Positions 45,472 through 60,735 of a stretch of 62,716 nucleotides of DNA are shown piece by piece. The position numbers and the translations under genes are program-made. The stretch's first letter is position 1, and each line of letters opens with the position of its first letter. The notes beneath the pieces are model-generated. The model searched no databases. It was given only the letters and a program-made list of their open reading frames with translations, and was not told the DNA's origin. This DNA is from a virus. Lineage: Duplodnaviria; Caudoviricetes. Location: IMG/VR virus record IMGVR_UViG_3300044613_003165, positions 1-62,716 of that record. One strand, written 5' to 3'.

Positions 45472-45732
45472 ATGTTTGTTGTTGGCGCTTTTTACGAGGT
45501 TGGTAATCCTCTTACACATGTTGGTTATAACGCTAATTACCCTTATGTTAAAATAACAGAAAACGATGGAAGAATCTATACTTTTAAGGTTTACGACGCA
45601 AATCTTAACGAAATACTTAACGAAGTAGATACTTTTTATGAAGACTCAAACTTCGCTAAAAATTTAAGATACGCATCATATTTAAATAAATCGTTAGAAA
45701 CGGATAAGGAAATTAAAGAATGGCTAAAGTAA
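45472..45732 (+). CDS. EWLK-tail family protein
   Basis: Ends ETDKEIKEWLK; probable start MFVVG after TTGACA promoter. Confidence 0.6.
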   Translation: MFVVGAFYEVGNPLTHVGYNANYPYVKITENDGRIYTFKVYDANLNEILNEVDTFYEDSNFAKNLRYASYLNKSLETDKEIKEWLK

Positions 45733-45914
45733 AAATTAAATTCGGTAGGGATGAGCTTTATCCAGTTTATGTTGAGGATAATGTTTACGGTAACTTTGAA
45801 ATTGAAATGACTGAAAGTCAAATTACTGAATATCGTAGGGTTTATAGAGAGTTTAGTCAATGGTTGGCGTTTTTACAAAAATTAGAGCAAGATGAAGAAA
45901 AGAGCGCCATTTAA
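45720..45914 (+). CDS. Hypothetical protein starting inside the previous EWLK tail
   Basis: GAATGGCTAAAGTAA overlap; SD AAGGA. Confidence 0.6.
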   Translation: MAKVKIKFGRDELYPVYVEDNVYGNFEIEMTESQITEYRRVYREFSQWLAFLQKLEQDEEKSAI

Positions 45915-46396
45915 TGCTAGATATAAAACTACTATTGAATATTACAATAGCCGTATACTTACCCTTACTATTAATAGCAATTGGTTATTATATTTATAAT
46001 AAAGTTAATCGTTTTAAAGAATTTTTAGACGATTATAATATGGACTTTAAAAAATATATTATTCGGGGTTTAAAACGGTTTAAAGTCGGAGATATACTAA
46101 TCCAAGAAGAACCCTACTTAGGACAACCCATTGAAGAACTAAAAGAAAATAGAGATATTATAAAAATATTAACCATAGGCAAACACACTATGGTAGAGGT
46201 ACTAGAACAAACTAGTAGTCCTTCTACTTCTATTTCTCCTACAGTAGCACCAGTAAGACGCTTACCTTATTTATCTAAAAGAGCGGGGTTTCAAGATAAA
46301 ATAGTTTACGAAATGCCATTAACAGTTATTAAGTATCGTTTTAATAAACATAAAAAAACTATTATACAAGACGAAGTAAACGAATGGCTAAAATAA
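45914..46396 (+). CDS. EWLK-tail family protein with N-terminal TM
   Basis: FKVGD motif; ends IQDEVNEWLK. Confidence 0.6.
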   Translation: MLDIKLLLNITIAVYLPLLLIAIGYYIYNKVNRFKEFLDDYNMDFKKYIIRGLKRFKVGDILIQEEPYLGQPIEELKENRDIIKILTIGKHTMVEVLEQTSSPSTSISPTVAPVRRLPYLSKRAGFQDKIVYEMPLTVIKYRFNKHKKTIIQDEVNEWLK

Positions 46397-46704
46397 ATTT
46401 TACTTTTAGACAAGACATAATACTGTACTTTACACCAATTAAAGATAAACTATATTATCCTATCCCATATCAAAAAATAGCCATAGGCCCCCTTGAGTTT
46501 AACATAATCATAGACAAAAGAGAATTAGTTAAATTAGTAAATAATAGAATAGTATACGCCTACACAACAAAACTACAAACTCCTAAACGATACACTACAT
46601 TTAAAACGTATGGTATAATGGATGATATCTATTATATAGAAATAGACGAATCTTTATTTAAAGTAGAACAAACTAATAAAGAAATACTAGAATGGCTAAA
46701 GTAA
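46384..46704 (+). CDS. EWLK-tail family protein
   Basis: Ends QTNKEILEWLK. Confidence 0.6.
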   Translation: MAKINFTFRQDIILYFTPIKDKLYYPIPYQKIAIGPLEFNIIIDKRELVKLVNNRIVYAYTTKLQTPKRYTTFKTYGIMDDIYYIEIDESLFKVEQTNKEILEWLK

Positions 46705-46916
46705 TCTTTTACTATAAAGATACCCTAACTGGCCATATCCTATCAGCCGTACCTATTGAAGGCTCTAGTCAAATAACCATTAGACATTGGAGTAACGATC
46801 AATGGGATGATAAAGAATGGACTGTACACATTGAGTTCTTAAACGAGTGTGTTGAAATACCTAACCCTGAGAAAGCTCTACAAACCGAATTCGACATCAA
46901 AAACTGGCTAAAGTAA
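46692..46916 (+). CDS. EWLK-tail family protein
   Basis: Ends QTEFDIKNWLK. Confidence 0.6.
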   Translation: MAKVIFYYKDTLTGHILSAVPIEGSSQITIRHWSNDQWDDKEWTVHIEFLNECVEIPNPEKALQTEFDIKNWLK

Positions 46917-46918
46917 CC

Positions 46919-47161
46919 TTATTTTAACCACTCTTCTATTTCTTCATCAGTTAACTGCCCTTTATAAAAATCAAAATTATTATCGACGTAATTTAAATCA
47001 AAAAATGCACCAGAGTAGTATTTGTCAAGTACAAGACAATACATACCATCGTGGACATATTTAACAGTAAAAATAAATTTAGAGTTTACGTAATTATATT
47101 CATTAGTTTTATCTGTACAAATTATTTTATCGCCCGCTTTAAATTTATAACTATATTCCAT
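46919..47161 (-). CDS. EWLK-tail family protein
   Basis: KFKAGD start; ends LTDEEIEEWLK. Confidence 0.65.
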   Translation of the reverse strand: MEYSYKFKAGDKIICTDKTNEYNYVNSKFIFTVKYVHDGMYCLVLDKYYSGAFFDLNYVDNNFDFYKGQLTDEEIEEWLK

Positions 47162-47162
47162 G

Positions 47163-47438
47163 TTATTTAAACAATTCCTGTACCTCTGATTCAGTAAATT
47201 TAGTTTTTACAAACTCAGGTGATACCTCAGTAAAAAAACCAGTATTACGGATATAGATCCTACTTTTATATGGACTGCCATTTTTTTTAAAAACCCTATA
47301 AACCCCTTTATCATCTTTTGTATATATTGGCAATTTTGTAATAATACCATTTATAAAATCGTTATGTTCGTAGATCTTAACATAATATTTATCCTTTTCT
47401 AAGTCGCACATACTCAACACTAAACCGTTTACTAACAT
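47163..47438 (-). CDS. ELFK-tail variant protein (tandem paralog)
   Basis: Ends FTESEVQELFK; paralog of 47449-47724. Confidence 0.65.
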   Translation of the reverse strand: MLVNGLVLSMCDLEKDKYYVKIYEHNDFINGIITKLPIYTKDDKGVYRVFKKNGSPYKSRIYIRNTGFFTEVSPEFVKTKFTESEVQELFK

Positions 47439-47448
47439 TCTATCATCC

Positions 47449-47724
47449 TTATTTAAACAATTCGTTTATTTCTAGTTCTGCCAACTTAGCTTTTACAAAC
47501 CCAGGCTCTAACTCATAAAAATAAGTAGATTTAAAACTAAAATAAACTTTACGCTTATACAAACTACCGTCTTTTTTAAAAACTTTATAAATCCCTTTAT
47601 TATCTTTTGAATATACGGGCAATTTTGCAATAATACCCTTTTCAAAATTACGAAATTCGTAACCATGAGCGTAATACTTACCTTCTTCTAACTTATCAGT
47701 AGAAATTAAAAGACTTACAATCAC
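47449..47724 (-). CDS. ELFK-tail variant protein (tandem paralog)
   Basis: Ends LAELEINELFK; shares GII.KLP.Y.KD.KG.Y.VFKK.GS.YK. Confidence 0.65.
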   Translation of the reverse strand: MIVSLLISTDKLEEGKYYAHGYEFRNFEKGIIAKLPVYSKDNKGIYKVFKKDGSLYKRKVYFSFKSTYFYELEPGFVKAKLAELEINELFK

Positions 47725-47784
47725 CTTACCAATCTACCACATAATCCTACAAACCGCAACACTAAACCTGGTTTACCAACGACT

Positions 47785-47818
47785 CAAACCCTACCCAAAC
47801 CCTACCCAAACCCTAACC
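47785..47818. repeat. Telomere-like 11-bp tandem repeat (CAAACCCTACC); five G3 tracts on minus strand
   Basis: caaaccctacccaaaccctacccaaaccctaacc. Confidence 0.8.
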
Positions 47819-48234
47819 TCGTATAACCGCCTATACGCCTCTATAAACGCTAAATGTTTAAACCCTAGCCTACCCCGCACGTACCCCTAACTTATATAAG
47901 CCTATAGCCCTATAATCCATTTATTACGCCTAGGTTAGTATAGCCGCTTAACGCTTACAAGCCCCTTACCTATTCACAACTTGATTTACAACTAACTTAA
48001 CCCAAATGGTTGTAAAAGTGGTTGTATAAGTACATCGGTTACGTAGATATTACCATAAAAACGGTAATACGTACACTTATAGTATACCAAAGGTTTATTA
48101 TAGCCCTTAGGATACAAACGCTTATAAACTATAGGGTTTTTATAGCCCTGGGCTTACAAGCGCGAAAAAAGGGAGATAAGCGTGAGTGACAGTATAAATA
48201 TAAATTTGGTTGTAGGTTACTCCTACCCCCCACT

Positions 48235-48326
48235 TGGCACGGTTTTTGCTATATGCAAAAACTATGCCTGCCTATTTACAAGAACTTTACGCAAGAATTG
48301 TACCAAGACCTGGCACGGTTTTTGCT
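48235..48326. promoter_or_regulatory. Cluster of four sigma54 (-24/-12) elements, orientation + - - +
   Basis: TGGCACGGTTTTTGCT (48235-50 and 48311-26), AGGCATAGTTTTTGCA (48269-54), TGGTACAATTCTTGCG (48305-290); all GG-N10-GC. Confidence 0.75.
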
Positions 48327-48518
48327 ACGCGTATACCTCCTATATAATGGGCTCAGAACTCGAGTGACCTTAACAAGATCTTAACAGAATTTTTGTAAAC
48401 ACTTTGGGCAGGGGTGTCAAAAAATAAACGCTTGAAATCATTGACGATTCACGCAACCTTAACAAAAATGTACAAAAGTTCGACACCACAGTTTCGTGCA
48501 ACCCATTGAATTTACAGG

Positions 48519-48534
48519 TGGCACAGCGCGTGCA
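48519..48534 (+). promoter_or_regulatory. sigma54-type promoter for a leaderless mRNA starting near ATG 48546
   Basis: TGGCACAGCGCGTGCA; IHF-like CAACCCATTGAAT at 48499. Confidence 0.6.
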
Positions 48535-48545
48535 ATTACCTAAGT

Positions 48546-48737
48546 ATGAACAACGAACAAGTGACCGAACACAAGTCAAAGGCCGAGGCAATCAAGTACC
48601 TCAAGGCTAAGGGCTACGAGTACACCGAACGCAATGACTTTGGCGATTGCGCGTGGCTCTACAGCAACGAAAATTATGCAATGCTTAGCTACAACAACAA
48701 AAATACAGTGACTATAGTAGAGGCAAAAAAACACTAG
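48546..48737 (+). CDS. Early hypothetical protein
   Basis: ORF directly after sigma54 element; no SD. Confidence 0.55.
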   Translation: MNNEQVTEHKSKAEAIKYLKAKGYEYTERNDFGDCAWLYSNENYAMLSYNNKNTVTIVEAKKH

Positions 48738-48764
48738 TTCCGCTTAACAACAAAGGGGGAAATC

Positions 48765-48995
48765 ATGGGAACAAAAACACAAGTCATTGAATTCATTGAA
48801 CACAACGAAATTGATGTGCGGACATTGAGTCTAGTTGACGACGATCCCGAGTTCGGGACAAGTGACATTAGTGACATTGAGGGCGACCTCTGTACTGTTG
48901 AGGCCTTGACTTTGGATGGGCTTGAGTTCAATTTTCAAATACTGAATGGCGGAAAAGAATTTGATATCATCGGCAAGTTGGCCGGATGGTTTTGA
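48765..48995 (+). CDS. Early acidic hypothetical protein
   Basis: SD AAGGGGG; very acidic. Confidence 0.6.
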   Translation: MGTKTQVIEFIEHNEIDVRTLSLVDDDPEFGTSDISDIEGDLCTVEALTLDGLEFNFQILNGGKEFDIIGKLAGWF

Positions 48996-49021
48996 ACACA
49001 AAAATTGTAGGGAGTCAAGCA

Positions 49022-49129
49022 ATGAACACAAAAAAATTCAAAGGTAAAATTATCCGAATCAAAGGCCCCATCAAATTGTGCAGCATCGCTAAACTCAAGG
49101 CATTGGGCTTTGTAGTTATAATGGCATAG
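49022..49129 (+). CDS. 35-aa basic peptide (not in ORF track)
   Basis: SD GGAG; fills gap in operon. Confidence 0.5.
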   Translation: MNTKKFKGKIIRIKGPIKLCSIAKLKALGFVVIMA

Positions 49130-49138
49130 GGAGGATTT

Positions 49139-49321
49139 ATGAACAAAAATAGAGCTATTGAATTAGTGACATCACTTCTAAACGACATGGACTTATGGCA
49201 AGGCGAGCATGCGGAGTTCGATCACTTGTTAAGTCAAGGCGTGGCAATGCTCGAATTAGGGTATACATTAGGGCAAGTAGATGAGTGCCTTAATAATAAA
49301 ATTCAAGACTTGGCCGCCTAG
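49139..49321 (+). CDS. Early hypothetical protein
   Basis: SD GGAGG. Confidence 0.6.
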   Translation: MNKNRAIELVTSLLNDMDLWQGEHAEFDHLLSQGVAMLELGYTLGQVDECLNNKIQDLAA

Positions 49322-49408
49322 CAAGAAGTCAAGACTTTTGCTGGACATTGGGCGATTCTCGGGCGTAAGGCTCGAGGATCGCTCTATTTTGTTTAGGCGC
49401 GCTCTAAT

Positions 49409-49578
49409 GGCCTTGCCCTGCCCTGTCCTGCCCTGTCCTGTCTTGGCCTGTCCTGTCCTGTCTTGGCCTGTCCTGTCTTGGCCTTGCCCTGCCTTGCCCT
49501 GCCCTGCCTTGCCTTGGGTGCTTTGCTCGAGCCTTGGTGCCTTGCTGGAGCCTTGCTTTGGTGCTTTGCTCGAGCCTT
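49409..49578. repeat. Degenerate pentamer array (C/T/G)C(C/T)TG, about 21 units, then GGTGCTTTGCTCGAGCCTT repeats
   Basis: No A on the + strand from 49409 to 49529. Confidence 0.9.
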
Positions 49579-49863
49579 AGCGAATTTTATCACTTCAAGC
49601 TCTTATGCGCCTAAGTCATTGAATTCACGCGCGACACTAAAAATGCCCATAGCGATTTCTAGAATTGTAGGTCTAGTTTTGCTAAGTTATTGAATTTATA
49701 CGAAGGTCTAGAAAGGCCCAGGTAAATTTTCATTTTTATATTTACAGATAAGCTAAACTATTGAATATACTATAATGGTAAATAATTCTCTATATAGATG
49801 AGTGAAAGGTCTAGATAAACGTTTATAAATTGACTTAGCTTGTTTTTGGGCATAGGCTAAGCA

Positions 49864-50004
49864 CCATTATACCATATTAGACACCTATGGAAATCGAGTC
49901 AAGTTAAGATTTAGTTAAGGGATTCATTTTTTATGGGCACAGCTATCCCATTATATCAATTTAGCATCCGGAGGTCTATTTGTCAAGTTAAGTTTATGTT
50001 AAGG
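49864..50004 (-). promoter_or_regulatory. Duplicated leftward sigma70-like promoter units (49864-49920 and 49948-50004)
   Basis: TTGACT-N17-TAATAT and TTGACA-N17-TAAATT, both preceded by CCTTAAC-N5-CTTAAC and followed by TATAATGG. Confidence 0.6.
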
Positions 50005-50444
50005 CGCTTATTGAATAGATTAAAGTTGGATTATTGTTAATAAAATAAGGGATTGTGAATAGAATAGTGGGTGCATTGGGTGCGGAGTATTGATTCAATA
50101 AATAATTTTCAGTATTACGTCCCTCCATTCTCGCCTACCTTGCATCTATACCCTATCTTATTGGATCTATTAATCTTTTAAAGCTTTATTAGACGCTCTT
50201 TACGCCGCTATAAGCGCACTTAATAGCCTAAACCGTTGATTATATACTAAGTACCTCTAAAGCGTCCCTAATCACCTTTTAAACTGTACAATAGACCACT
50301 AAGCGCCTATAAGTTCGACACTAAGCCTAAGTGCTCAAATTAATTAATACCCTTGAGGGATTATTAAGCTTAAGTTAAGCCTTTGTATATAAGTTATACA
50401 GGATCTATATTTAACTATTCTTTAAAGTCTAGTTAGTTAACCTT

Positions 50445-50460
50445 TGGCATAGCTTTAGCA
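50445..50460 (+). promoter_or_regulatory. sigma54-like element upstream of 50474
   Basis: TGGCATAGCTTTAGCA, GG-N10-GC; ATG 14 nt downstream. Confidence 0.45.
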
Positions 50461-50473
50461 TTATACTAATTAT

Positions 50474-50851
50474 ATGGGAACACAAGTTATAAACCAAATC
50501 ACTGAAGCTCTAGTTAAGGGTATACTTTCTTCTAATGGATCTAGTGTTAATTCTTTAGGTCAAACTATTGAGTCTAATATAGGCTATATGGTTAGCACTA
50601 AGCCTAACCTTGAATATATAGTAAATACCGCCGAGCCCCTATACTTTGAAGTCTTGGCCTACGTTGAACGAGTAGTCGGCTTATTAGGCGCTAATAGCGC
50701 TATAGGCGCTTGGGTAGACGCTAAGTCGGGCAAAGTGTACCTAGACGTGTCCGAATGCATTCTAGACCTTAATACGGCCATTAAACTAGCTAAACAAGCC
50801 AACCAAAAGGCTATTTTTGATCTTAACAGAAAGGAAACCATATATGTCTAA
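50474..50851 (+). CDS. Early phage protein (possible SAM-lyase-like fold)
   Basis: IGAWVD...YLDVS...AIKLAKQANQKAIFDL. Confidence 0.5.
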   Translation: MGTQVINQITEALVKGILSSNGSSVNSLGQTIESNIGYMVSTKPNLEYIVNTAEPLYFEVLAYVERVVGLLGANSAIGAWVDAKSGKVYLDVSECILDLNTAIKLAKQANQKAIFDLNRKETIYV

Positions 50852-51047
50852 TCTAATCACTAAGTTAAGTCTATTGGAAATTATTAGCCTTGAGGGACCT
50901 AAAAGCTTAGGCGAAGTCCTAAGGTACTATCCGCAAAATGCGTACCGTGAGGACATAAAGGCTTTATTGGATGAACTAGTAAAAGAGGGCAAGTTGACCT
51001 TTCAAATGACCAAAGGCATTTATAGGTCAAATATAAGTTTAAAATAA
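50844..51047 (+). CDS. Winged-helix DNA-binding protein
   Basis: LLEII...GPKSLGEV...IKALLDELVKEGKL..KGIY. Confidence 0.55.
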   Translation: MSNLITKLSLLEIISLEGPKSLGEVLRYYPQNAYREDIKALLDELVKEGKLTFQMTKGIYRSNISLK

Positions 51048-51113
51048 TACTTGACTGGATGATTAAAATAAGGCTTAATGTATAAAGTTAATAAACAATA
51101 AGGAGTTAATAAA

Positions 51114-51848
51114 ATGGAACAAAGTAAACTAATCACCTTGCCCGCGATTGTAAGCCCTGAGGTAAGCCCTAAGGTAAGCGGCAAATACGGCTTTGTTAAT
51201 ACCGCTGAAGTGGTGGCAAAGCTTGAAACAATGGGCTTTGTAGTGCGCACCGCGACACAACAAGGCAGAGGATCATCGGCGCGGCATGTCGTGAAAATGG
51301 TTGAATCGGGCTCTAGTCCACAATTTGATGGAACTAGACCGGAACTAATCATTATGAATGCCCACAATGGTACGTCTAGTCTTAGATTTTTAATGGGACT
51401 TTATAGAATGGTGTGCTCTAATGGACTTATCGTTTCGGATGGGGTAGATGAAAGGATTGTACTTCGACACTCGCAGGGCTTGCCGCAAAACCTTGAATCG
51501 GTTATTGAATTAGTTAAGAACAAAGCCACTGGGGTTTTTGAACACGTCAAGTCAATGAACGAAGCACAAGTTAACTCGGACGCTTTGGCCGCGTACACTG
51601 GAGCAGTCTTGAGTCAAGTTAAGATCGAACCGAGTGCAACTAATATTCAATTAGCCTTGTCACCGCGACGCACCGAAGATCAAAGCAATGATGCTTGGCA
51701 CGTATTAAACCGAGTGCAAGAAAATCTAATCAAAGGTGGACTTAAGTTTGAGGGTAGGAAGCGAGCCACTAAGGAAGTAAAAGGGATTCTAGGTGACTTT
51801 ATGGTGAATAAGGCTGTATGGGATAATAAGGCTTTGTTAGTTGGCTGA
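51114..51848 (+). CDS. DUF932 (DUF945-like) protein
   Basis: SGKYGFVNT, PELIIMNAHNGTSS, GLYRMVCSNGL, RHS, PRRTED...W.VLNRVQENLIKGG. Confidence 0.85.
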   Translation: MEQSKLITLPAIVSPEVSPKVSGKYGFVNTAEVVAKLETMGFVVRTATQQGRGSSARHVVKMVESGSSPQFDGTRPELIIMNAHNGTSSLRFLMGLYRMVCSNGLIVSDGVDERIVLRHSQGLPQNLESVIELVKNKATGVFEHVKSMNEAQVNSDALAAYTGAVLSQVKIEPSATNIQLALSPRRTEDQSNDAWHVLNRVQENLIKGGLKFEGRKRATKEVKGILGDFMVNKAVWDNKALLVG

Positions 51849-51865
51849 ATTATCCTAAAAACAAA

Positions 51866-51881
51866 GCGCCAAGGATGGCGC
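51866..51881 (+). promoter_or_regulatory. GCGCCA-AGGA-TGGCGC hairpin, CsrA/RsmA-type site next to an SD
   Basis: Perfect stem presenting ANGGA in the loop. Confidence 0.5.
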
Positions 51882-51893
51882 AGAAAGGTTTAT

Positions 51894-51998
51894 ATGATAA
51901 GTCTTTTAATTCTAATCGGTTTAGTATATTTTGCTGTAACAATGCCTATTATCGGAGTGCCCTTGTTGATTTTGGCTATACTTTCAGGAAAGGTCTAA
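51894..51998 (+). CDS. 34-aa hydrophobic peptide (not in ORF track)
   Basis: SD GAAAGG; MISLLILIGLVYFAVTMPIIGVPLLILAILSGKV. Confidence 0.55.
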   Translation: MISLLILIGLVYFAVTMPIIGVPLLILAILSGKV

Positions 51999-52002
51999 AA
52001 AA

Positions 52003-52188
52003 ATGAACGTAATTAACTTTAAAAATGAATTGACTAAACTAGTCTTTAATAATAAGATCGAAACAAGTCTAAGGATAAAGGCAGGCAATACAGTAAATAA
52101 AATTAATGAGGACGAAACTAAGGAACTAGAAAAGCTTTACTTTGAGCAAGAAGATAAGAAAACAGGGAATTTTAATCCTTTTAGATAA
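52003..52188 (+). CDS. Hypothetical protein
   Basis: SD GAAAGG. Confidence 0.5.
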   Translation: MNVINFKNELTKLVFNNKIETSLRIKAGNTVNKINEDETKELEKLYFEQEDKKTGNFNPFR

Positions 52189-52202
52189 GAAAGGTTTATA
52201 AA

Positions 52203-52748
52203 ATGGAATATAATATTAAAAAAATGTATGCCATTGAGGTAGGGAAGAAAGAAAGCGAAAGGTTTTTTAGGTTAATCGAAAAGAAAGGCTACCATGATCT
52301 AAGTTATAGAATGGTAACAAATGATAGGTTAAACCATAAAGTGGAATTTTTTGAAACTATAGAAAGCGCTAATAATAAAATCAAAGAATTAAAAACCATT
52401 AAAAAAACCTGGCAATTAAGGCCCATTGAGGTAAATTGTTTAGAATTTTATCATTTTGAAGCCGAGGGATTTGCTGATACTTATGGTTGGTATAGGGATT
52501 GTAGTATTAATAAAGTAAAATCAACGGTTTTTAAACGAGAACCTTTTAGCGAAGCCGATATTGAAGACTATTTTAGATCAAGATTTTCTAACCCAAAACA
52601 ATTGGCTTTGAAGTTAAAAAAACAGGAAGTAGAACACAAAAAAAATACTATTAAAAAATTTATTGAAGAAACTAAAAAAATCAAGCAAAGATTTGAATAT
52701 TTGAAAGAATACGACTCGGACAACGAAGTACAAGAATGGTTGAAATAA
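52203..52748 (+). CDS. EWLK-tail family protein
   Basis: Ends DSDNEVQEWLK. Confidence 0.65.
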   Translation: MEYNIKKMYAIEVGKKESERFFRLIEKKGYHDLSYRMVTNDRLNHKVEFFETIESANNKIKELKTIKKTWQLRPIEVNCLEFYHFEAEGFADTYGWYRDCSINKVKSTVFKREPFSEADIEDYFRSRFSNPKQLALKLKKQEVEHKKNTIKKFIEETKKIKQRFEYLKEYDSDNEVQEWLK

Positions 52749-53580: not shown

Positions 53581-53595
53581 AAGTTTTGATATACT
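53567..53595 (+). promoter_or_regulatory. Strong sigma70 promoter for the AAA/VWA operon
   Basis: TTGACA-N17-TATACT. Confidence 0.75.
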
Positions 53596-53621
53596 GTTAA
53601 CACAATGGAGGATAAAGCAAA

Positions 53622-54698
53622 ATGAAGCCAAACGATATTAACAAAATCCTAGACCTTGCCAAAAGTGCTCGAAGCAAAGGATTCACGTTTAACCCGCTTT
53701 TCGTAGGTGACGCGGGCATTGGGAAGTCTAAAATTTGTCAACAATGGGCTGAAAAACAAAAACAATCGGACCCCGATTTTGGGTTTATTGACTTGCGCAT
53801 GGCTTATCTTGAAGCTCAAGACCTTGTAGGAATGCCGCGTAGCGAAGGTGGCCGGACTGTTTATTCTTTGCCTGAATTTTGGCCTACTTCTGGCAGCGGG
53901 CTTTTGTTGCTAGAGGAACCTAATAGAGCGCATCCGCAAACGATGCAAGCTCTAATGCAGTTGACTACTGACCGAAAGGTGCATGATTATAAACTTCCTG
54001 CGGGATGGATTATCGCTGGAGCTATTAACCCTGAAAGTTCTAGTTATTCGGTTGAAACAATGGACGCAGCGCTTAAAAACCGATTCCAATTGTTTGAAAT
54101 TAATTATGACCATTCTAGTTTTGTTGACTTTATGAAAGAAAGAAAATTTAGCGATAATGTTATTTCATTTGTTAATAGCGGAGTTTGGACCTTTAAAAGC
54201 GCATCTGAAAATGTGGAACACTATATTTCACCTAGAACCTGGCACGCAATGAGTGACGCTGAATTGTCGGGACTCACGAGCGAGTTTAAGGAAATGCACC
54301 ACGAAGCCGCTATTGCAATTTTAGGCAAAAGTGTAGGGAAGGAATTCCACGCCTATTGCTTCCTTGAAACTCCTGTATTGCTAAAAGACCTTTTGAACAG
54401 CCCAAAGGAAGCCAAGAAGAAACTTAAGAAGCACGCAAGCGAAGAATCCTATCGTGGGGATTTGCTCAATGTTACAATTAACAGCATCTTGAGCGAATAC
54501 AATGGCGAGCAAGACAAGCTAGAAAAATTTGAAGACCTTGTTTTGATGGTTGCAGATCTTTTGCCCGCCGATCTTTCTTTGAACCTGATTAAAGAATTCA
54601 CTAATAAAGTTCCTGACAAAAACTATAAGATAGCGACTCTACTGGATAAAAACCCTGAAATCAAGAAGTCACTAGAAAAACGCTTTAAGGGGATTTAA
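53622..54698 (+). CDS. MoxR/dynein-related AAA+ ATPase
   Basis: GDAGIGKS, DLVGMP, LLLEEPNRA, AGAIN, MDAALKNRF, SPRTW. Confidence 0.9.
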   Translation: MKPNDINKILDLAKSARSKGFTFNPLFVGDAGIGKSKICQQWAEKQKQSDPDFGFIDLRMAYLEAQDLVGMPRSEGGRTVYSLPEFWPTSGSGLLLLEEPNRAHPQTMQALMQLTTDRKVHDYKLPAGWIIAGAINPESSSYSVETMDAALKNRFQLFEINYDHSSFVDFMKERKFSDNVISFVNSGVWTFKSASENVEHYISPRTWHAMSDAELSGLTSEFKEMHHEAAIAILGKSVGKEFHAYCFLETPVLLKDLLNSPKEAKKKLKKHASEESYRGDLLNVTINSILSEYNGEQDKLEKFEDLVLMVADLLPADLSLNLIKEFTNKVPDKNYKIATLLDKNPEIKKSLEKRFKGI

Positions 54699-54700
54699 TT

Positions 54701-55945
54701 ATGTCAAATAAACTAGAACTAGCAAAGCAGCAACTAGAAAAGTGTTCTTATTATCTTAACTATAAAAGCAAGCTTATTTTTGTTAGTTCGGTGGCGCAGT
54801 CAATGCATGTTAACTTTAGCGAAAGTTTGCCTACAGCGGGAGTTATGTTTGATGAAAAGATTAAGCAGTTTAAGCTATTTATTAACCCTGATTTTCTTTT
54901 GAAGCTTAGCATCGCAGAGGGAGCCGCAGTATTAACCCACGAGATTTATCATATTTTCCACAAGCACGTCTATTATAATCACACTCAATATAATAAAATG
55001 ATCCTTAATATCGCAATGGACCTAGTTATTAATCAGTTAATTGAAGATTTACCCAAGGAGGCAATGTTTTTAAAGAATTTTAAACAGAAAGACGGAAGCC
55101 CATTCCCTAAGAATAAACCGACTGAAGTATACTATGATTTGCTAATGAATAGTGACTTTAACCCTAATCCTGACGGCGATCAAAGCAACCCGATGCCTAA
55201 TGAGTGGAAGGACACTAAGGAAGCTTTTACTAAGAAACAACACGCTTTTGATTCGCATGAATGGGGAGAAACACAAGATGAGGCTCAATTAAAAGAAAAA
55301 CTAGAAGCAGTTCAACAATTAGCTAAGCGCGCTAAAGAACAAACAGAGAAGGCACACTCAAAGACCCCTGAATTCGTAGAAGACTTACTAGAACAAATAA
55401 ACAAGGAACTCGCTAAACTTGATTATAAGTCTATTTTGATGCATACACTTAAGCGATCTATGCCCGCCAAAACGCTAATTAAGACACGCAAAAGACCCTC
55501 TAGACGCTTTGGTGAAATAGCACCAGGGAATAAACTAGGTGAAATGCCTAGAGTTTACTTCTTGGCCGACACTTCCGGTTCTATTTCCTACAATGAGTTA
55601 AGCGAGTTTCTTAATGTTACTAATGGATTTATGGTTAATGGTGTTTCTAAGGCTGAAATCGGCTTGTTTCATACTTCCCTTTATCACGAAGAAAGGATTA
55701 AGAAAAATTTTACTATCAACGAGTCTAAACTACAGTCCGGCGGAACCGAGTTAACCGATGCTTTGACCAAGGTTATCAAGAAAAACCCAGATCTTTTGAT
55801 TATTTTAACTGATGGGGAGTTTAGTATGCCTGAAATTGACACAAGAAAGCTTCCTAATACTGTGGTTGTTTTATCAAATACGCATCGCGACGATTGCCCT
55901 TTATCTACCCTTAAAAATGTAAAGACGGTTAAGTATGGATTCTGA
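54701..55945 (+). CDS. DUF2201-type metallopeptidase plus VWA domain protein
   Basis: PTAGV, HEIYH...NIAMDLVIN; MIDAS DTSGS, GGT, LTDG. Confidence 0.88.
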   Translation: MSNKLELAKQQLEKCSYYLNYKSKLIFVSSVAQSMHVNFSESLPTAGVMFDEKIKQFKLFINPDFLLKLSIAEGAAVLTHEIYHIFHKHVYYNHTQYNKMILNIAMDLVINQLIEDLPKEAMFLKNFKQKDGSPFPKNKPTEVYYDLLMNSDFNPNPDGDQSNPMPNEWKDTKEAFTKKQHAFDSHEWGETQDEAQLKEKLEAVQQLAKRAKEQTEKAHSKTPEFVEDLLEQINKELAKLDYKSILMHTLKRSMPAKTLIKTRKRPSRRFGEIAPGNKLGEMPRVYFLADTSGSISYNELSEFLNVTNGFMVNGVSKAEIGLFHTSLYHEERIKKNFTINESKLQSGGTELTDALTKVIKKNPDLLIILTDGEFSMPEIDTRKLPNTVVVLSNTHRDDCPLSTLKNVKTVKYGF

Positions 55946-56123
55946 AATAAAAGCAGGGGATAAGGTTATTGTAAAGCGAGAACCTAATCAAGTTTATACA
56001 GTACAAGCAAGGCACAAAGATTTAATCTTAGTTAAAGAATCAAATAAACTTTTTTTTGTTAAGGAATTAAAGCTGACCAAAATAGAAACCTTAAATAAGG
56101 AAATAGCAGAATGGCTCAAGTAA
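55935..56123 (+). CDS. EWLK-tail family protein (SH3/KOW-like)
   Basis: IKAGDKV; ends TLNKEIAEWLK. Confidence 0.65.
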   Translation: MDSEIKAGDKVIVKREPNQVYTVQARHKDLILVKESNKLFFVKELKLTKIETLNKEIAEWLK

Positions 56124-56353
56124 AGGCTAAATTTAAAGCTGGCGATGTTATAAAGTTTAAGAACGGTTCCGTATGGTATACGCATATTATAACGGGTTTT
56201 AGCGACAATGGCCTATGCTATTACGCCAAGGGCTCGTTTTCAACCGATAATTATTCTAATGAATATCTTATGGGTATTACCAGGACTGACGGCATGTATA
56301 CTTTATCTAAAAGAACAGAAACCGAAAAGGACATACAACAATGGCTCAAGTAA
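56111..56353 (+). CDS. EWLK-tail family protein
   Basis: KFKAGDVI; ends ETEKDIQQWLK. Confidence 0.65.
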   Translation: MAQVKAKFKAGDVIKFKNGSVWYTHIITGFSDNGLCYYAKGSFSTDNYSNEYLMGITRTDGMYTLSKRTETEKDIQQWLK

Positions 56354-56514
56354 AAAAACTAAGTAAAAACATGAGTCTTATTTTAGATGATAAGGGTAAC
56401 TTTGACCTTATTTTTAATCAAAAATCTTTTAGCCTTAGTGTAGACGGCAGCAAGGTTTGGGTTAAGATTAGTCCCAAAACAGCCAAGAAACTAGTTAAGG
56501 AATTAAGCAAATGA
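56341..56514 (+). CDS. 57-aa protein starting inside the previous tail (not in ORF track)
   Basis: MAQVKK..., SD AAGGA, ATGA overlap with 56511. Confidence 0.55.
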   Translation: MAQVKKLSKNMSLILDDKGNFDLIFNQKSFSLSVDGSKVWVKISPKTAKKLVKELSK

Positions 56515-56801
56515 AAAGAATAGGGAATAGATATTTTATAGAGTCTAGTCCGCTTAGCGTAGGCACCTTGACAGTTAACTATTCGGATAACTTTATCGTA
56601 AAGGACTTAAGTTTATCCGTAACAGTAAAGGGAATAAGTGTAGAAGTTATAAAGGAAATTGAAGAAGTGTTAAACGATTTTAGAAAGTATAGCGAGCCAA
56701 AAAAAGGCGTAAATGCAATTAAGCTCCGAGAAGAATGGAGCAAAGAGGAAGAAGATCAAAACAATCTAAACTATATTATCAACAAAGCGAGGAAGCAATG
56801 A
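56511..56801 (+). CDS. Hypothetical protein
   Basis: Coupled ORF. Confidence 0.5.
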   Translation: MKRIGNRYFIESSPLSVGTLTVNYSDNFIVKDLSLSVTVKGISVEVIKEIEEVLNDFRKYSEPKKGVNAIKLREEWSKEEEDQNNLNYIINKARKQ

Positions 56802-57109
56802 TTAATAAAGAAACCAAAACTAAGTTTACTTTTCGAGTTGTAGAACCCTTTTACGATATGGGCGAAGAAATAAACAAAAGCGAAGTAGTGACGGATAGTC
56901 TTGACAAGGCTAAGGAAATTCTGGTAAATTCTTATGAGGGAGTAGATATTAATAACTTTCAGTTGGTAAAGACTGAAGATATTGAACTCTATGATCCTCA
57001 AAAGAAAACTTCCTTGGAATACATGGAAGACTTTGAAAGCTTTAAGTATTTTGAAATTGGAAACTATTTTGACAAAGACTTCAACAACAAGAAAAGAGTG
57101 GTAAAATGA
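56798..57109 (+). CDS. Hypothetical protein
   Basis: ATGA overlap at 56798; SD GAGG. Confidence 0.5.
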   Translation: MINKETKTKFTFRVVEPFYDMGEEINKSEVVTDSLDKAKEILVNSYEGVDINNFQLVKTEDIELYDPQKKTSLEYMEDFESFKYFEIGNYFDKDFNNKKRVVK

Positions 57110-57417
57110 GTAAATTAAAATGGTTATTGTTAAGCGTAACACTGGTATTAGGCTTTAGTTTGATTTGGTTGACTTTACCAGGACACAAGGTAGGACAATG
57201 CTTAGAAGATCCTGAAACCGGAAGTGTTTTTAGAATTGAGGACGTAGGCACTAAGTTTGTTATTCTAGGTTTGGTTAGTTCGGATAATTTAGCAGTTATT
57301 TTAGGTATGATTCAACGCGGTGGGTTTATTTTAGCGGATAAGGATAACCCAGACCTCGACGCTATGAAAGTTCCATGTCCTGAAATGCCTGAAACACAAC
57401 AAGAAGGAAGCAAGTAA
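57106..57417 (+). CDS. Membrane-anchored small protein
   Basis: N-terminal TM; KVGQC...PC. Confidence 0.55.
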   Translation: MSKLKWLLLSVTLVLGFSLIWLTLPGHKVGQCLEDPETGSVFRIEDVGTKFVILGLVSSDNLAVILGMIQRGGFILADKDNPDLDAMKVPCPEMPETQQEGSK

Positions 57418-58308
57418 ATGAAACTATTATTACTTTTAACCTTAACAGTAGCACTGAGTGCGTGTAGCGGTAGCGATACTGTTATTGTAAACACTCACGG
57501 AGATCGAATTAGCGAACTAGAAAGGCGTGCTGATCTTAATGATAAACTTAACGAAGTTCAGAATATGCGTCTTGATGCCCTAGAAGGACGTATGGGCTCA
57601 GTAGAAGACCGAGCTACAGACCTAGAAGTCCGAGTTGATGAACTAGAAGGCGAAGTTGAAGCTTTGGAACTAGCTGACGCTGATCTACAACAACAAATTG
57701 ACGATTTGACTACTCAAATGCTAGACGGTGACGCTAGTTTGCAGTCACAAATTGATAGTTTAGTTTGGGAACAATCGGTTACACGAGGAAGGCTTAACAG
57801 TCTACAAGCCCAGTTATTTGTACAATCTTTTGTAGTTTCTGTTATGCAAAACCAAATTAGCATTATTAATTCTCGTTTTCCAGTTATTAACTCACGTTTA
57901 AATAGCCTACAAAGTCAAATTAACGACCATAGTTCGCGTTTAGATACGATTGAAAGTGAACTAAATGATGTGGTTAGCGATCTTTCGAGCCTAGATACAC
58001 GAGTTTTGGCGCTTGAGTCTGATTTTCTTGTGTTAGAAGGTCAGGTTTCTGCTTTACAGGCACGATTGGACCGAGAAGGGGTTACGGTGTTCAAGTGTAA
58101 CAGCGCTTCTTCAAAAGAAAAGATCTTTAAAATTAACGGTTTGTTCTATGCTGCAATGAACTATGTTACTAAGTCAGGAAACAATGTAACAAGCGTGCAA
58201 ATTGCCTTAGAGTCCCTTAATTCTAGTACGACTTATGTAACAACGGACGGTGGCCCCGCTTGTACCTTTAAAGGCGACGGAACTAATCTTATCCCTTTTA
58301 ATCTTTGA
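57418..58308 (+). CDS. Lipoprotein with long coiled coil
   Basis: Signal peptide with lipobox LSAC; about 200 aa of heptad repeats; Cys pair in C-terminal domain. Confidence 0.75.
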   Translation: MKLLLLLTLTVALSACSGSDTVIVNTHGDRISELERRADLNDKLNEVQNMRLDALEGRMGSVEDRATDLEVRVDELEGEVEALELADADLQQQIDDLTTQMLDGDASLQSQIDSLVWEQSVTRGRLNSLQAQLFVQSFVVSVMQNQISIINSRFPVINSRLNSLQSQINDHSSRLDTIESELNDVVSDLSSLDTRVLALESDFLVLEGQVSALQARLDREGVTVFKCNSASSKEKIFKINGLFYAAMNYVTKSGNNVTSVQIALESLNSSTTYVTTDGGPACTFKGDGTNLIPFNL

Positions 58309-58319
58309 AAGGAAATTAT

Positions 58320-58775
58320 ATGAATAAGAAAAGCGTATTAAAGACCTTTTCGATTATGTTAGTAGGCGGCGTTATTGGTTATATTCTGGCACCAAGAGAA
58401 GGTAAAGTAGTAACAGAAGTAGTAGAAAAGACTGTAGAAGTGCCTGTAGAAATTATCAAGGAAGTAATTAAGGAAGTTGTAGTAGAAAAGAAAGTATATG
58501 TTAAGCGGGCTTGTGCTAAAAAGTCTTGGCAAAGGGAAATGATTAGCGCAGAAAGGCGTAAGGATTCTCGTAAGAAAAACCGTTTAAGTGTTGGCTTAGG
58601 TTCGTCCTATGTAGGACTTGATGTTAAAGAAAGTGCCGCTCAAACTGTAGTGAAGGAAAAGCGAGAAGCTGATTACATGATTCAATACCAAAGATCCCTA
58701 ACAGATACGCTTAGTTTAGGTGTAGCAGTAACAGGCAGTGAGTCTATTTTCGGTGTAGTAGGATTAGATTTTTGA
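58320..58775 (+). CDS. Protein with N-terminal TM and C-terminal outer-membrane-type beta strands
   Basis: TM, VEK/IKEV repeats, alternating beta strands ending GLDF. Confidence 0.55.
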   Translation: MNKKSVLKTFSIMLVGGVIGYILAPREGKVVTEVVEKTVEVPVEIIKEVIKEVVVEKKVYVKRACAKKSWQREMISAERRKDSRKKNRLSVGLGSSYVGLDVKESAAQTVVKEKREADYMIQYQRSLTDTLSLGVAVTGSESIFGVVGLDF

Positions 58776-58776
58776 T

Positions 58777-58944
58777 ATGAAAAGAAAGCGTGCTTGGATC
58801 ATTCAAGGCGTTTGGGGAAGAAAACCTTTAGCCCTTCCCCTTCATTTAGTCAAAAGAAAACCTTTTAAACTAAACGATTGGTTGTTTGTTTCAGTTGTAG
58901 GAATAGCAATAGGTTACTTTTTTAGTGGTTTGTTCTTAAATTAA
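58777..58944 (+). CDS. 55-aa basic protein with C-terminal TM (not in ORF track)
   Basis: Fills gap in operon. Confidence 0.45.
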   Translation: MKRKRAWIIQGVWGRKPLALPLHLVKRKPFKLNDWLFVSVVGIAIGYFFSGLFLN

Positions 58945-58958
58945 CTAGATGGTGTTTT

Positions 58959-59246
58959 ATGGATATGTGGGATGGCGACGATCCAGGCGATTCTGATTCT
59001 TGGCTAAAGCAATTAAAAAATGAACACAATAATTTTTATAGTAGCTATAACCGTCCCGCTATAGAAGAAATTGAAGCAAATTGTTATATTTGTGGTAAAA
59101 AGAAGATCAAAATAGACTATTATCACGACACTTTAAACGAAGTCCATCACCTAACCTTTAGGTGTTGTCGAACAGAAACCAAGACTTTTAGCAAGAAAGA
59201 CTTAGACAAAATTATCCAAGGTAAAATTTGGCTGGCTTTTATTTAG
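58959..59246 (+). CDS. Zn-ribbon hypothetical protein
   Basis: CYICG...RCC. Confidence 0.5.
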   Translation: MDMWDGDDPGDSDSWLKQLKNEHNNFYSSYNRPAIEEIEANCYICGKKKIKIDYYHDTLNEVHHLTFRCCRTETKTFSKKDLDKIIQGKIWLAFI

Positions 59247-59258
59247 AAAGGAAAAGAA

Positions 59259-59786
59259 ATGGGTATTTTAACTTCAAGCGAAATCAGTAAACAAGTTGTG
59301 TTGGGCGGAATTGACATTAAACCCTTTACAAAAGAAAACGTACAGATCAATAGTTACGATGTTACTTTAAACAATACACTTATTACCTATTTAGGTACTG
59401 TTTTAGATATGAAAATGCCTAATCAAACTCAAGAACTAATTATTCCAGAAGAAGGACTTGTTTTAGAACCAGGCAAGCTTTATTTAGGGTCAACAAATGA
59501 AGCTATTGGTAGTTCTTTATATGTGCCTATGCTAGAAGGTCGATCTAGCTTGGGTCGATTAGGTATTAGTATTCACGCTACAGCCGGTGTGGGTGACTTG
59601 GGCTTTAAAAATAGGTGGACACTAGAGATTAGCGTAGTGCAACCTGTTAAAATCTATCCTAATGTTAGGGTTGGTCAGGTAATATTCTTTAAACCAGAAG
59701 GTGATACAAGAAACCAATATACAGGCAAATACGCTAATAGTGTTTCAGTAGAAGCAAGCAGGTCACATGAAGACTTTAATAGTTAA
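59259..59786 (+). CDS. dcd: dCTP deaminase
   Basis: NSYDVTL, EGRSSLGRLG, HATAGVGDLGF..RWTLEI, IYP.VRVGQ, Y.GKY. Confidence 0.93.
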   Translation: MGILTSSEISKQVVLGGIDIKPFTKENVQINSYDVTLNNTLITYLGTVLDMKMPNQTQELIIPEEGLVLEPGKLYLGSTNEAIGSSLYVPMLEGRSSLGRLGISIHATAGVGDLGFKNRWTLEISVVQPVKIYPNVRVGQVIFFKPEGDTRNQYTGKYANSVSVEASRSHEDFNS

Positions 59787-59853
59787 GTATGGTTTGATAG
59801 TTGCTATTAACTTATTGTTATTATTGCTATTAGATTCATTTTACCAAAGAGAA

Positions 59854-59882
59854 TTGACAAACGTCTACGAGTACAGTAAATT
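59854..59882 (+). promoter_or_regulatory. sigma70-like promoter
   Basis: TTGACA-N17-TAAATT. Confidence 0.65.
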
Positions 59883-59899
59883 CGTAATAGAGGTGTACT

Positions 59900-60124
59900 G
59901 TGGCGCAAAACGGTTCTAAAGAATTATACAGAATTTATACGGATGTTAATGGTAAAAGGCGTAAGTTAAAAAGCTTACGCCAAACTTACTATTTTGTAGA
60001 ATGGAGTAAAGAACATCCTGAATCTATTTGTACAATTTGGCAAGACGAATCCGGTCAAGAGTTAAGAATACCAGATAACGCATGGACTTTAATTAATTTT
60101 CAATATGTGGATATTTTGGAATAA
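59900..60124 (+). CDS. Hypothetical protein
   Basis: GTG start after SD GAGGT. Confidence 0.55.
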   Translation: MAQNGSKELYRIYTDVNGKRRKLKSLRQTYYFVEWSKEHPESICTIWQDESGQELRIPDNAWTLINFQYVDILE

Positions 60125-60127
60125 TTT

Positions 60128-60511
60128 ATGCAAGTTACAGTAAAACAAAACACAGTTCTTATTTCAAATGCTAATAAAGAAAAATTAAAAAGATATTTTA
60201 AAACTAGTAATAAAACTAGGAATTTTACGGAAAATAAATTTTACGTTTTTTCTCCACATCCTAGTAATTTTCTTTATTATGGAGGATTTCCTAGAGCGTT
60301 TAGTTATAAAGATTTTTACTATTTAGAAAACGGAGAATTGTTTAGGCTTTATAACCGTGGGTTTAGCCCCCTTAAACGAAAAAAAAGATTTGACTGGAAA
60401 GAACACCCTATGTGTACTAGTTGTGATTATATTCCTTATTTTATTGAACTAGATTCAGATCCTTTTAAGCATTTAGCAGTTGAACAAGAAATTAGCGAGT
60501 GGTTAAAATGA
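60128..60511 (+). CDS. EWLK-tail family protein
   Basis: Ends [11 protein letters not shown]. Confidence 0.6.
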   Translation: MQVTVKQNTVLISNANKEKLKRYFKTSNKTRNFTENKFYVFSPHPSNFLYYGGFPRAFSYKDFYYLENGELFRLYNRGFSPLKRKKRFDWKEHPMCTSCDYIPYFIELDSDPFKHLAVEQEISEWLK

Positions 60512-60735
60512 GTAATAAGTTTAAGGTAGGGGATCTTATAAAACATAAAGAGGCTTCTGCTTGTTATTTAATTTGTGGATCAAATAACAACTTTTATCGT
60601 TTAAAAGTAAAAAATGATAATTTGTATGGTAATTTGTCTTATGAATTAAAATCCCCAAAATCTTATATAAACGAAAATTATAAATTAGTCAAAGAATCCG
60701 AAACCGAAAAGGATATAGAAGAATGGCTCAAGTAA
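60508..60735 (+). CDS. EWLK-tail family protein
   Basis: KFKVGDLI; ends [11 protein letters not shown]; start 60508 (ATGA overlap) or GTG 60499. Confidence 0.65.

Follow-up and report, generated by a model that had tools for sequence, protein, structure and literature searches.

Why should small proteins with largely unrelated sequences all end in the same few residues? The question is raised by the window analyzed here, which is the whole of the linear IMG/VR virus record IMGVR_UViG_3300044613_003165 (genome G000; 62,716 bases, estimated to be about 76% complete, with a full phage length estimated at about 80-85 kb). Thirteen small open reading frames (ORFs) in its 45433-60735 region end in a common C-terminal tag, [ED]-[IV]-x-E-W-L-K-stop, or in a variant of it. 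A selected and portable C-terminal helix is carried by heterogeneous small proteins in this phage and in its relatives, has a lineage-specific signature, and is associated within the group with a gene pair that encodes a MoxR-type ATPase and a von Willebrand factor A (VWA)-type metallopeptidase. The tag module is almost certainly real and under selection as a peptide. Docking to a partner, and the identity of that partner, are what we infer from these data.

The 13 ORFs and their tails exist exactly as the first-pass annotation of this DNA had listed them. Among 359 window ORFs of at least 30 amino acids (aa), 11 end in WLK and two in ELFK, and all of these lie within 45433-60735. The tag is flush with the stop codon in 13/13 cases, in four loci and on both strands. 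A DNA pattern for E-W-L-K-stop had eight forward matches and one reverse match in the record, and 0/0 on a backwards-read control. ORF 45273-45389 (38 aa, tail ...DRPCLFK) also matches the regular expression and was judged a chance hit. When the 11 WLK proteins were aligned over their final 20 residues, a conserved unit of at least 14 residues emerged, longer than first noted: K-x3-T-[DE]-x-[DE]-[IV]-x-E-W-L-K. In this alignment every sequence has Lys -14, Trp -3, Leu -2 and Lys -1, and most have Thr -10, Ile/Val at -6, Glu at -4 and an acidic residue at -7. Lys -14 is present in both ELFK tails as well and thus in 13/13 proteins. A Thr with acidic residues after it is a classical cap for the N-terminus of a helix, and the i, i+3, i+4 spacing of Ile, Trp and Leu would put all three on one helix face. 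The helix that had been proposed for the tag region is also predicted by both AlphaFold2 (AF2) models, of the 60499 and 52753 proteins (tagged genes are named by their lower coordinate), each of which places a short helix there.

Conservation resides in the peptide and not in the DNA, as the first-pass annotation had argued. Identical codons were found in 179/353 same-residue pairs compared with 194 expected from window codon usage; because there is no excess of identical codons, selection is taken to act on the peptide. The 45-nucleotide (nt) DNA copies of the tags are 64-76% identical, and the codon variety is as originally quoted (Leu as CTA x5, CTC x3, TTA x2 and TTG x1; Glu as GAA or GAG; Lys as AAA x7 and AAG x6; stop as TAA x12 and TGA x1). 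Close orthologs were found for two tagged proteins, one 88% identical to the 52203-52748 protein and one 79% identical to a protein of the KFKxGD type, named for an N-terminal motif. The tags of these orthologs keep 14/14 and 13/14 residues and their bodies keep 145/167 and 48/62 residues (22 and 14 differences), respectively.

The last 12 aa of each of the 13 proteins were trimmed to compare the bodies. The earlier description of the proteins as dissimilar stands in that the trimmed bodies fall into about nine unrelated groups. It does not extend to 47163 and 47449, which are clear paralogs (47% identity, E 4e-25), or to 56111 and 60499, which are also paralogs (E 2e-5); 46919 and 55935 joined the latter two weakly through the N-terminal KFKxGD motif (46919/55935 E 0.009). 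The remaining seven trimmed bodies gave nothing under E 0.01, and thus the set does not align end to end as one ordinary paralog family. None of the 13 tagged proteins was assigned to a family when they and several neighbors were scanned against Pfam and PHROGs, and the PHROGs matches were weak ones only (phrog_4317 at E 4.5e-4; phrog_4264 and phrog_7247 at about E 4e-3). Word-indexed homolog searches returned, for 52203-52748, the protein itself and the one 88% ortholog only and, for the KFKxGD alignment, members of the window genome and of two related phages described below (G002 and G003) plus the one 79% ortholog only.

The 52753-53088 protein (plus strand, 111 aa, tail KTISTDNEIREWLK) places the tag on a body that is widespread in phages. 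An exhaustive phmmer search with this body found 398 representative homologs at E<=1e-3. The best matched stretches end at query residue 108 or before, mainly below 100 and short of W-L-K, and 0/149 non-self homologs listed end in WLK, in agreement with the claim that the tag sits on unrelated bodies. G002 and G025 both have arrays of tagged proteins, yet their homologs of this body (234 and 132 aa, respectively) lack a tag. The AF2 model (110-row alignment) is an alpha/beta fold with a predicted local distance difference test score (pLDDT) of 93.5, in which residues 1-~100 form the body and the tag is a separate helix at 103-110 past a break at 100-102, with a pLDDT of 71-78 for the tag helix vs 93-98 for the body. 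At least one tagged protein, 52753, is thus a common phage domain to which a tail was added in this lineage. The AF2 fold comparison covers two tagged proteins; the second model, of the 60499 protein (12-row alignment), is beta-rich with a helix at 68-77 and a pLDDT of 51.6, too low to judge packing.

Assignment of the 52753 body to a family goes no further than leads to DUF8033: an Atlas feature score of 0.85, template modeling (TM) scores of 0.51-0.64 over residues 1-90/108, and BFVD matches at E 0.04-0.5. There was no Pfam match of the body to DUF8033 (PF26096) at E<=0.01 nor at E<=5. Among solved structures, the DUF8033-like profile found nothing below E 0.2 and the 52753 model had no Foldseek match in the PDB at E<=1e-3. 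P0022 and P0035, two of the homologs of this body among the 149 listed, end in H-x3-F-x2-[KE]-V-x2-[VL]-I-[ND], a G002/G025-type tail on a DUF8033-like body, and presumably come from other phages of the group. P0066 and P0126 fit this tail loosely.

The tag is not a unique signature, as a survey of related phages showed. The pattern [ED]-[IV]-x-E-W-L-K-stop matches 94 IMG/VR viral stretches, with one match each; these are mainly a few unrelated families with such ends by chance. A narrower codon pattern matched a 174-aa protein in L009, from an unrelated large phage and by eye a fragment of DnaE-like sequence, which was rejected as a chance match. In metagenome contigs a 20-aa tag alignment matched 590 stretches, none of which survived a tblastn check; so short a query can scarcely pass that check, and the result is no sign that the tag is absent there. 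Among the IMG/VR contigs matched, G003 (42.5 kb, 53% complete) is the only other one with many such tails. It is a true relative, with a portal 51% and a terminase 46% identical to those of the window, and 13 of its small ORFs end in E-V-x-E-W-L followed by K, E, G, A, P, KD or SDD. The tagged bodies of the window and of G003 gave no match between them at 1e-4. A portal alignment gathered 77 related loci, and the EWL pattern occurs in none of the 22 longer records from this set. Five related uncultured phages, G003 among them, whose portals are 49-52% identical to that of the window, have arrays of 7-29 small proteins with a lineage-specific amphipathic C-terminal helix. About 22 proteins of G002 (87.6 kb, complete) end in H-x3-F-x2-K-M-E-E-[LF]-L-K, about 26-29 proteins of G025 in [IV]-[ND]-x2-[IV]-[DE]-K-[LV]-L-K, seven proteins of G040 in F-x2-K-L-[ED]-x-[LI]-I-[NK]-E and 13 proteins of G042 in L-K-x-K-[LM]-K-[DK]-[IV]-F-[NK]-[DE]. 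A common register was recognized by eye in all lineages, in which positions -10, -6, -3 and -2, counted from the terminal Lys of the window tag, are hydrophobic. The window motif is thus the form taken in one lineage by a feature of the phage group. Many members in G003, G002, G040 and G042 have 1-8 extra residues past the homologous helix, and a free C-terminus, which had been proposed as part of the signal, is not a general requirement.

A uniform regular expression for the helix register was applied to the C-termini of small genes, with the same expression 20 aa upstream as the control. The tag-bearing genomes had C-terminal/control counts of 14/3 (G000), 12/2 (G003), 23/3 (G002), 29/1 (G025), 7/1 (G040) and 13/1 (G042), and the tag-free genomes 2/2 (G021), 2/1 (G022), 2/0 (G026) and 3/2 (G028). 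Six further partial records had 0-6 matches and no common motif. A body-only profile of the four KFKxGD proteins of the window had as its four best non-self matches tagged proteins of G002 and G003 (E 0.003-0.08, 484 proteins), which is modest evidence for one body family that has a different tail in each lineage. An iterated profile that contained the tag drew in every tagged protein by the tag alone and was discarded as circular. The G002 family itself can be aligned over its full length in 12 members, and its own profile is matched by 22 of its members at E 1e-25 to 9e-11; in a PHROGs scan of 12 members, two had a single weak match and the rest none. G002 also has a second tail family (loci L191-L192, about 42.3-43.3 and 67.3-71.8 kb) of about 15 proteins of 45-80 aa that end in [IV]-P-[IV]-L-E-L-[ILV], some with extra residues, and these tails have no sequence relation to the KMEELLK tails.

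Two AAA+ genes of the window had been put forward as encoding candidate partners of the tag. The plus-strand gene at 53622..54698 encodes an AAA_5 ATPase of the MoxR type (PF07728, E 4.9e-6, 27 bits vs a cut-off of 22) and in tblastn matches annotated MoxR-like ATPases; used alone as a query, the MoxR protein found nothing in viral contigs or metagenome contigs. The next plus-strand gene, 54701..55945, begins after a 2-nt gap and encodes a protein in which a putative DUF2201_N metallopeptidase (HEIYH) is joined to a VWA-like domain whose metal ion-dependent adhesion site (MIDAS; DTSGS) is intact. Both Pfam assignments exceed the cut-offs (PF13203, 50.8 bits; PF09967, 39.7 bits), and the HExxH and MIDAS residues H80, E81, H84, H89, D290, S292, S294, T349 and D371 are invariant in 19 homologs. 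A profile of this protein matched nothing among solved structures. Judged by sequence, the two genes constitute a MoxR/vWA-metallopeptidase pair, the phage form of the MoxR AAA+/vWA cochaperone pairs, in which the vWA protein has an N-terminal metallopeptidase. Pairs of this kind occur in jumbo phages, where they have been proposed to take part in virion assembly and to process structural proteins by peptidolysis (Iyer et al. 2021, PMC7824862). The window pair resembles the published phage pairs in having an adjacent AAA_5 MoxR gene followed by a DUF2201_N HExxH metallopeptidase with a VWA-like domain and MIDAS (PMC7824862). It differs in its tagged proteins, since such pairs are not known to have a tagged client set; the published virion-assembly role is itself a proposal.

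The pair tracks the tag among relatives. It is present in group members G000, G002, G025, G040 and G042, with tag families in 5/5; tag families occur in 0/10 group records without the pair (four at least 92% complete and six partial). In a phyletic profile of 101 window genes, 53622 and 54701 are the only genes with homologs in 4/4 other tag-bearing and 0/4 tag-free genomes, and the MoxR/VWA candidate gained support as the only window gene pair to do so. The next-best gene (61346-62350) has homologs in 3/4 tag-bearing and 0/4 tag-free genomes. The other candidate, the AAA gene at 42905, was lost, since its presence does not track the tag and it has homologs in 2/4 tag-free genomes. The pair is flanked by tagged genes in the window and in G002, G025, G040 and G042, where the neighborhoods were read. 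On the portal tree the trait is patchy and needs four changes, at least three of them on well-supported branches, and the tag-free G028 is among the nearest relatives of the window.

The tag is probably an interaction helix, whether its partner is another protein or the tails themselves. The signatures change together across bodies without homogenization of the DNA, which would imply that all bind one surface, be it that of a shared reader or of the tails themselves. A single docking helix read by one external partner, with the MoxR/VWA-peptidase as the leading candidate, is a plausible if tentative reading when taken as a whole. That the partner is the MoxR/VWA-peptidase is, as a statement of its own, possible and somewhat doubtful. 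MIDAS sites of VWA domains typically bind an acidic residue of a short ligand motif. The tag has near-invariant Glu residues, and the MoxR/VWA pair is the favored reader. The module consists of a conserved Lys, a Thr/acidic helix start, a predicted short amphipathic helix with Ile/Val, Trp and Leu on one face and a final Lys, and is attached to a changing panel of small proteins. Each of the six phages, that of the window and its five relatives, has its own signature for one helix register on 7-29 of its small proteins. The helix would be a common docking handle through which one partner recognizes many different small proteins, and the lineage-specific signatures would reflect co-evolution with that partner. 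The tagged proteins may be clients or substrates of the MoxR/VWA-peptidase, which would process them or clear them at set times, or they may be adaptors through which it receives other (e.g., host) proteins. This fuller proposal, a phage client-addressing system in which a lineage-specific helix marks a changing panel of small early proteins for the MoxR/VWA(MIDAS)-metallopeptidase, is doubtful.

Several results weigh against a shared docking helix with MoxR/VWA as its reader. Independent contrasts on the tree number three, and although 3/3 are concordant the sign test gives p 0.25. The MoxR/VWA genes and the arrays adjoin, and joint gain and loss as one block could therefore yield the co-occurrence with no functional tie. 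MoxR/VWA-peptidase pairs lack a tag family in 16/16 loci of other phage groups, and thus the pair does not need tagged proteins. G003 has tags and no MoxR/VWA in its 53%-complete fragment. The window genome is 76% complete, and a better-correlated gene could therefore sit in the missing part. A profile of the G002 family had no significant match to window proteins (best E 0.1); because there is no significant tag alignment, the cross-lineage homology of the tags rests on the register and the shared KFKxGD body. In two co-folding runs without controls, the VWA-peptidase (19 alignment rows, Mg and Zn added) and the 60499 protein (12 rows) scored 0.00, which is evidence neither way.

An alternative with no external reader is that the helix is intrinsic to one family, the slow-evolving tail of a fast-diverging superfamily that packs on its own body or pairs with the tails of other members in homo- or hetero-oligomers. 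It is unlikely, although it accommodates the four window proteins that share both body and tag, the end-to-end alignment of 12 G002 members and the location of all tags in tandem arrays, which are typical of duplication; mutual pairing of tails would also produce a lineage-wide change of signature. The nine or so body groups of the window are at odds with it. So are the DUF8033-like body, common in phages that lack the tag (0/149 listed) and untagged in its G002 and G025 orthologs, and the one confident model, where the tag is a separate and less confident helix past a break. Eight to ten residues would, moreover, be short for a stable coiled coil. Host-takeover genes are usually small and lie among nucleotide-metabolism genes, and the tagged proteins, too, are small and lie amid such genes (dUTPase, dCTP deaminase and ThyX). 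This setting, the differences in signature among lineages and the resemblance of an acidic helix with an aromatic face to short docking motifs would suit a handle that docks proteins on a host hub or a host protease, as an adaptor or degron, with a signature that tracks each lineage's host. Such a host-directed handle is nevertheless quite improbable: the phyletic profile points to phage genes, and the final residue is Lys and is not terminal in many relatives, unlike the nonpolar C-terminal degrons. No cultured phage is close, the best portal match in the phage collection being 32% identical.

The gene junctions raise a further possibility, that the repeat is a nucleic-acid or translation element, a cassette for translational coupling or a recombination site by which small genes are shuffled, with the peptide as a by-product. 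In 6/13 tags the E-W codons (GA-ATG-G) contain the ATG of the next ORF (45720, 46384, 46692, 56111, 56341 and 60723), with a fixed 13-nt overlap and next N-termini of MAKV, MAKI or MAQV. A seventh junction is at 60499, which starts either at a GTG within the preceding tag or at ATG 60508 with a 4-nt (ATGA) overlap; the public gene call P0004 begins at ATG 60508 (MSNKF). Five G003 junctions have the same 13-nt overlap and one has a 16-nt overlap, as read by eye from ORF coordinates. Leu is CTA or CTC in 8/11 tags, the sole trace seen at the DNA level; CTC is over-used (3/11 vs 2% genome-wide), in all three cases where the overlapping frame reads Ala-Gln. The break point of a 497-nt absence in a related strain, 4 nt after a tag stop, also suits a junction cassette. 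The lack of an overall excess of codon identity nonetheless makes it very improbable. The seven tags that lack a next-gene ATG had 48 identical codons vs 52 expected of 91 pairs, and the six with such an ATG had a slight excess (47 vs 40 expected of 75). No downstream ORF overlaps six of the tags, among them the pair at the convergent ends 46916/46919. The junctions of other lineages have ordinary 4-nt overlaps, and their helices hold the register with different residues. The start codons inside tags look like secondary use of a convenient ATG. The remaining alternative, a virion address by which the tail targets proteins to the procapsid for packaging or processing, perhaps through the MoxR/VWA-peptidase in assembly, is likewise most improbable. 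It could draw on the assembly and processing role proposed for the jumbo-phage pairs (PMC7824862). The tagged genes lie outside the minus-strand structural block (1-42 kb), among metabolic genes. Known capsid-targeting sequences are, besides, N-terminal.

No described phage system with such a tag was found in the literature searched, which was judged partly from the titles listed, in line with the first-pass annotation. The closest comparisons are general. PIP-box and other clamp-binding motifs and the C-terminal tip of the single-stranded DNA-binding protein (SSB) are also short terminal docking motifs for one hub, with a hydrophobic face, preceded by acidic residues and carried by unrelated bodies, and the I-x-x-W-L spacing of the tag equals that of the PIP-box (Q-x-x-[ILM]-x-x-[FY]-[FY]). 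The tags do not fit the PIP-box pattern, as Gln stands three residues before Ile/Val in 1/13 tags (Glu in six, Asp in four and Asn in two) and the last pair is W-L or L-F; the window module also extends further (to Lys -14, with Thr -10), has a signature peculiar to its lineage and occurs on small orphan proteins only. The ankyrin/PRANC (F-box-like) families of poxviruses are likewise tandem families with fast turnover in which a variable part precedes a conserved, helix-type C-terminal handle, and the PRANC handle is thought to plug into one machine. They belong to other viruses and have no sequence relation to the window handle, which has 10-17 residues and is not a domain. The ssrA-type C-terminal degrons of AAA+ proteases and the capsid-targeting sequences of T4 are short terminal peptides that address many proteins to one machine. 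The tag differs from an ssrA-type degron in that it is flush with the stop in 13/13 but ends in Lys, where such a degron ends in nonpolar residues, and is followed by extra residues in many relatives. The T4 sequences are N-terminal and are cleaved by the prohead protease, whereas the window module is C-terminal in all cases. The promoter early stem-loops (PeSLs) of T4-type phages are mobile regulatory cassettes, repeated elements that border small early genes and shuffle them, and strain-level indels occur at window borders as well. PeSLs are, however, non-coding DNA elements, whereas the window repeat is coding, conserved as a peptide and free of codon identity beyond what the peptide requires, and it does not qualify as a PeSL-like junction cassette.

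No part of a phage genome is less understood than its small orphan early genes, and the tag ties 13 such orphans in one phage and 7-29 in each of five relatives into one testable system. The helix itself is short and portable and can be mutated with ease. MoxR/VWA-metallopeptidase pairs are common in phages and have no known substrate; if the proposed tie is true, the tagged proteins would be their first candidate substrates, and tag and reader would be a natural example of two elements that change together between lineages. Should the MoxR/VWA tie fail, the tag would still serve as a handle toward the real partner, be it of the phage, the host or the tails themselves. The finding is wider than first noted, as it concerns a whole phage group, yet narrower, as the window motif is one lineage's version.

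The tagged genes begin on the plus strand with 45433..45732 (99 aa, tail KSLETDKEIKEWLK), whose tag contains the ATG of ORF 45720. Its start is uncertain. The N-terminus is hydrophobic and the ORF overlaps the minus-strand gene 45125-45442 by 10 nt, and for these reasons the true start may be an internal Met. Plus-strand genes 45914..46396 (160 aa, hydrophobic N-terminus, tail KKTIIQDEVNEWLK), 46384..46704 (106 aa, tail KVEQTNKEILEWLK) and 46692..46916 (74 aa, tail KALQTEFDIKNWLK) follow, with ORFs 46384 and 46692 beginning within the tags of their predecessors; the last is convergent with a minus-strand tagged ORF and hence has no downstream gene. The minus-strand block consists of 46919..47161 (80 aa, KFKxGD body family, tail KGQLTDEEIEEWLK) and the paralogs 47163..47438 (91 aa, variant tail KTKFTESEVQELFK) and 47449..47724 (91 aa, variant tail KAKLAELEINELFK). 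At 46905-46933 the stops of the convergent tagged genes are 2 nt apart (46916/46919), and the tag codons therefore form an imperfect inverted repeat, TGGCTAAAGTAA CC TTATTTTAACCA, which could act as a weak bidirectional hairpin. The plus-strand gene 52203..52748 (181 aa, tail KEYDSDNEVQEWLK) precedes 52753, and its last 37 residues are unchanged in the 88% identical ortholog. Past the MoxR/VWA pair are the plus-strand genes 55935..56123 (62 aa, KFKxGD-like, tail KIETLNKEIAEWLK), which overlaps the end of the VWA gene and has ORF 56111 beginning within its tag, and 56111..56353 (80 aa, KFKxGD family, tail KRTETEKDIQQWLK), whose tag contains the start of ORF 56341. The last two tagged genes, also on the plus strand, are 60128..60511 (127 aa, stop TGA) and 60499..60735 (KFKxGD family; 78 aa, or 75 aa if the start is ATG 60508), within whose tag ThyX (60723) begins at an ATG. 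A KFxxGD protein followed by a ThyX that begins inside the tag is an arrangement common to window 60499-60735 and G003. The window ThyX (60723-61361) is an uninterrupted 212-aa protein, and the G003 homolog that begins inside a tag (L092 873-2753) is a 626-aa open frame with, by eye, an intein-like insert that has an HNH-type motif.

The minus-strand genes of the window at about 4.6-41.4 kb include a P22-like portal and a T4-type large terminase. From 42 kb on, small genes, mainly on the plus strand, lie amid those for dUTPase, dCTP deaminase, ThyX, the AAA protein and the MoxR/VWA pair, and the tagged-gene region is presumably the non-structural, early part of the phage. A megablast of 53622-58308 against the phage collection gave no match. 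Contigs with the phage or near strains were found in 16 public runs from 10 studies labeled lake water or freshwater metagenome, and the window itself may come from one of these. The 73.9-kb contig of run X5 represents one diverged strain with hundreds of differences across the region. In place of 53093-53589 (497 nt), where the window has two small genes without tags that lie between MoxR and a tagged gene, this strain has 21 other letters; the break, at 53093, begins 4 nt past the stop of a tag. Contigs of several other runs also end or diverge at 53542/53577. The X5 contig has a second near-copy of the 60686-60738 tag/start junction about 2.8 kb beyond position 60800. Among the 40 of 845 rows listed of differences between the window and run contigs, 30 differences of X5 are at 45478-45682 and none at 45683-45763, where the listing is perhaps incomplete. 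A joint of 56122 to 60678 in X2 (shorter side 44 letters) was taken as a cross-match of paralogous ends.

The minus-strand tagged block is separated from the next plus-strand genes by about 2.7 kb without a convincing ORF (47725-50473), which has a GC content of 0.415 compared with about 0.31-0.33 in the flanks. It contains tandem repeats at 47785-47815 (11-nt unit) and at 49410-49555 (15-nt unit TGCCTTGCCCTGTCC x6.6 plus a 19-nt unit), and is heavily rearranged in strain X5, with several skips. An Rfam scan of 47.5-50.6 kb gave no match and no tRNA genes were found. The region may be an origin or a regulatory region. Other genes of the window encode a trypsin-like peptidase (2549-3265, PF13365), a small protein with weak metallopeptidase-like matches under the Pfam cut-offs (888-1184), a DUF932 protein (51114-51848) and a 296-aa coiled-coil protein with a lipoprotein-like N-terminus (57418-58308).

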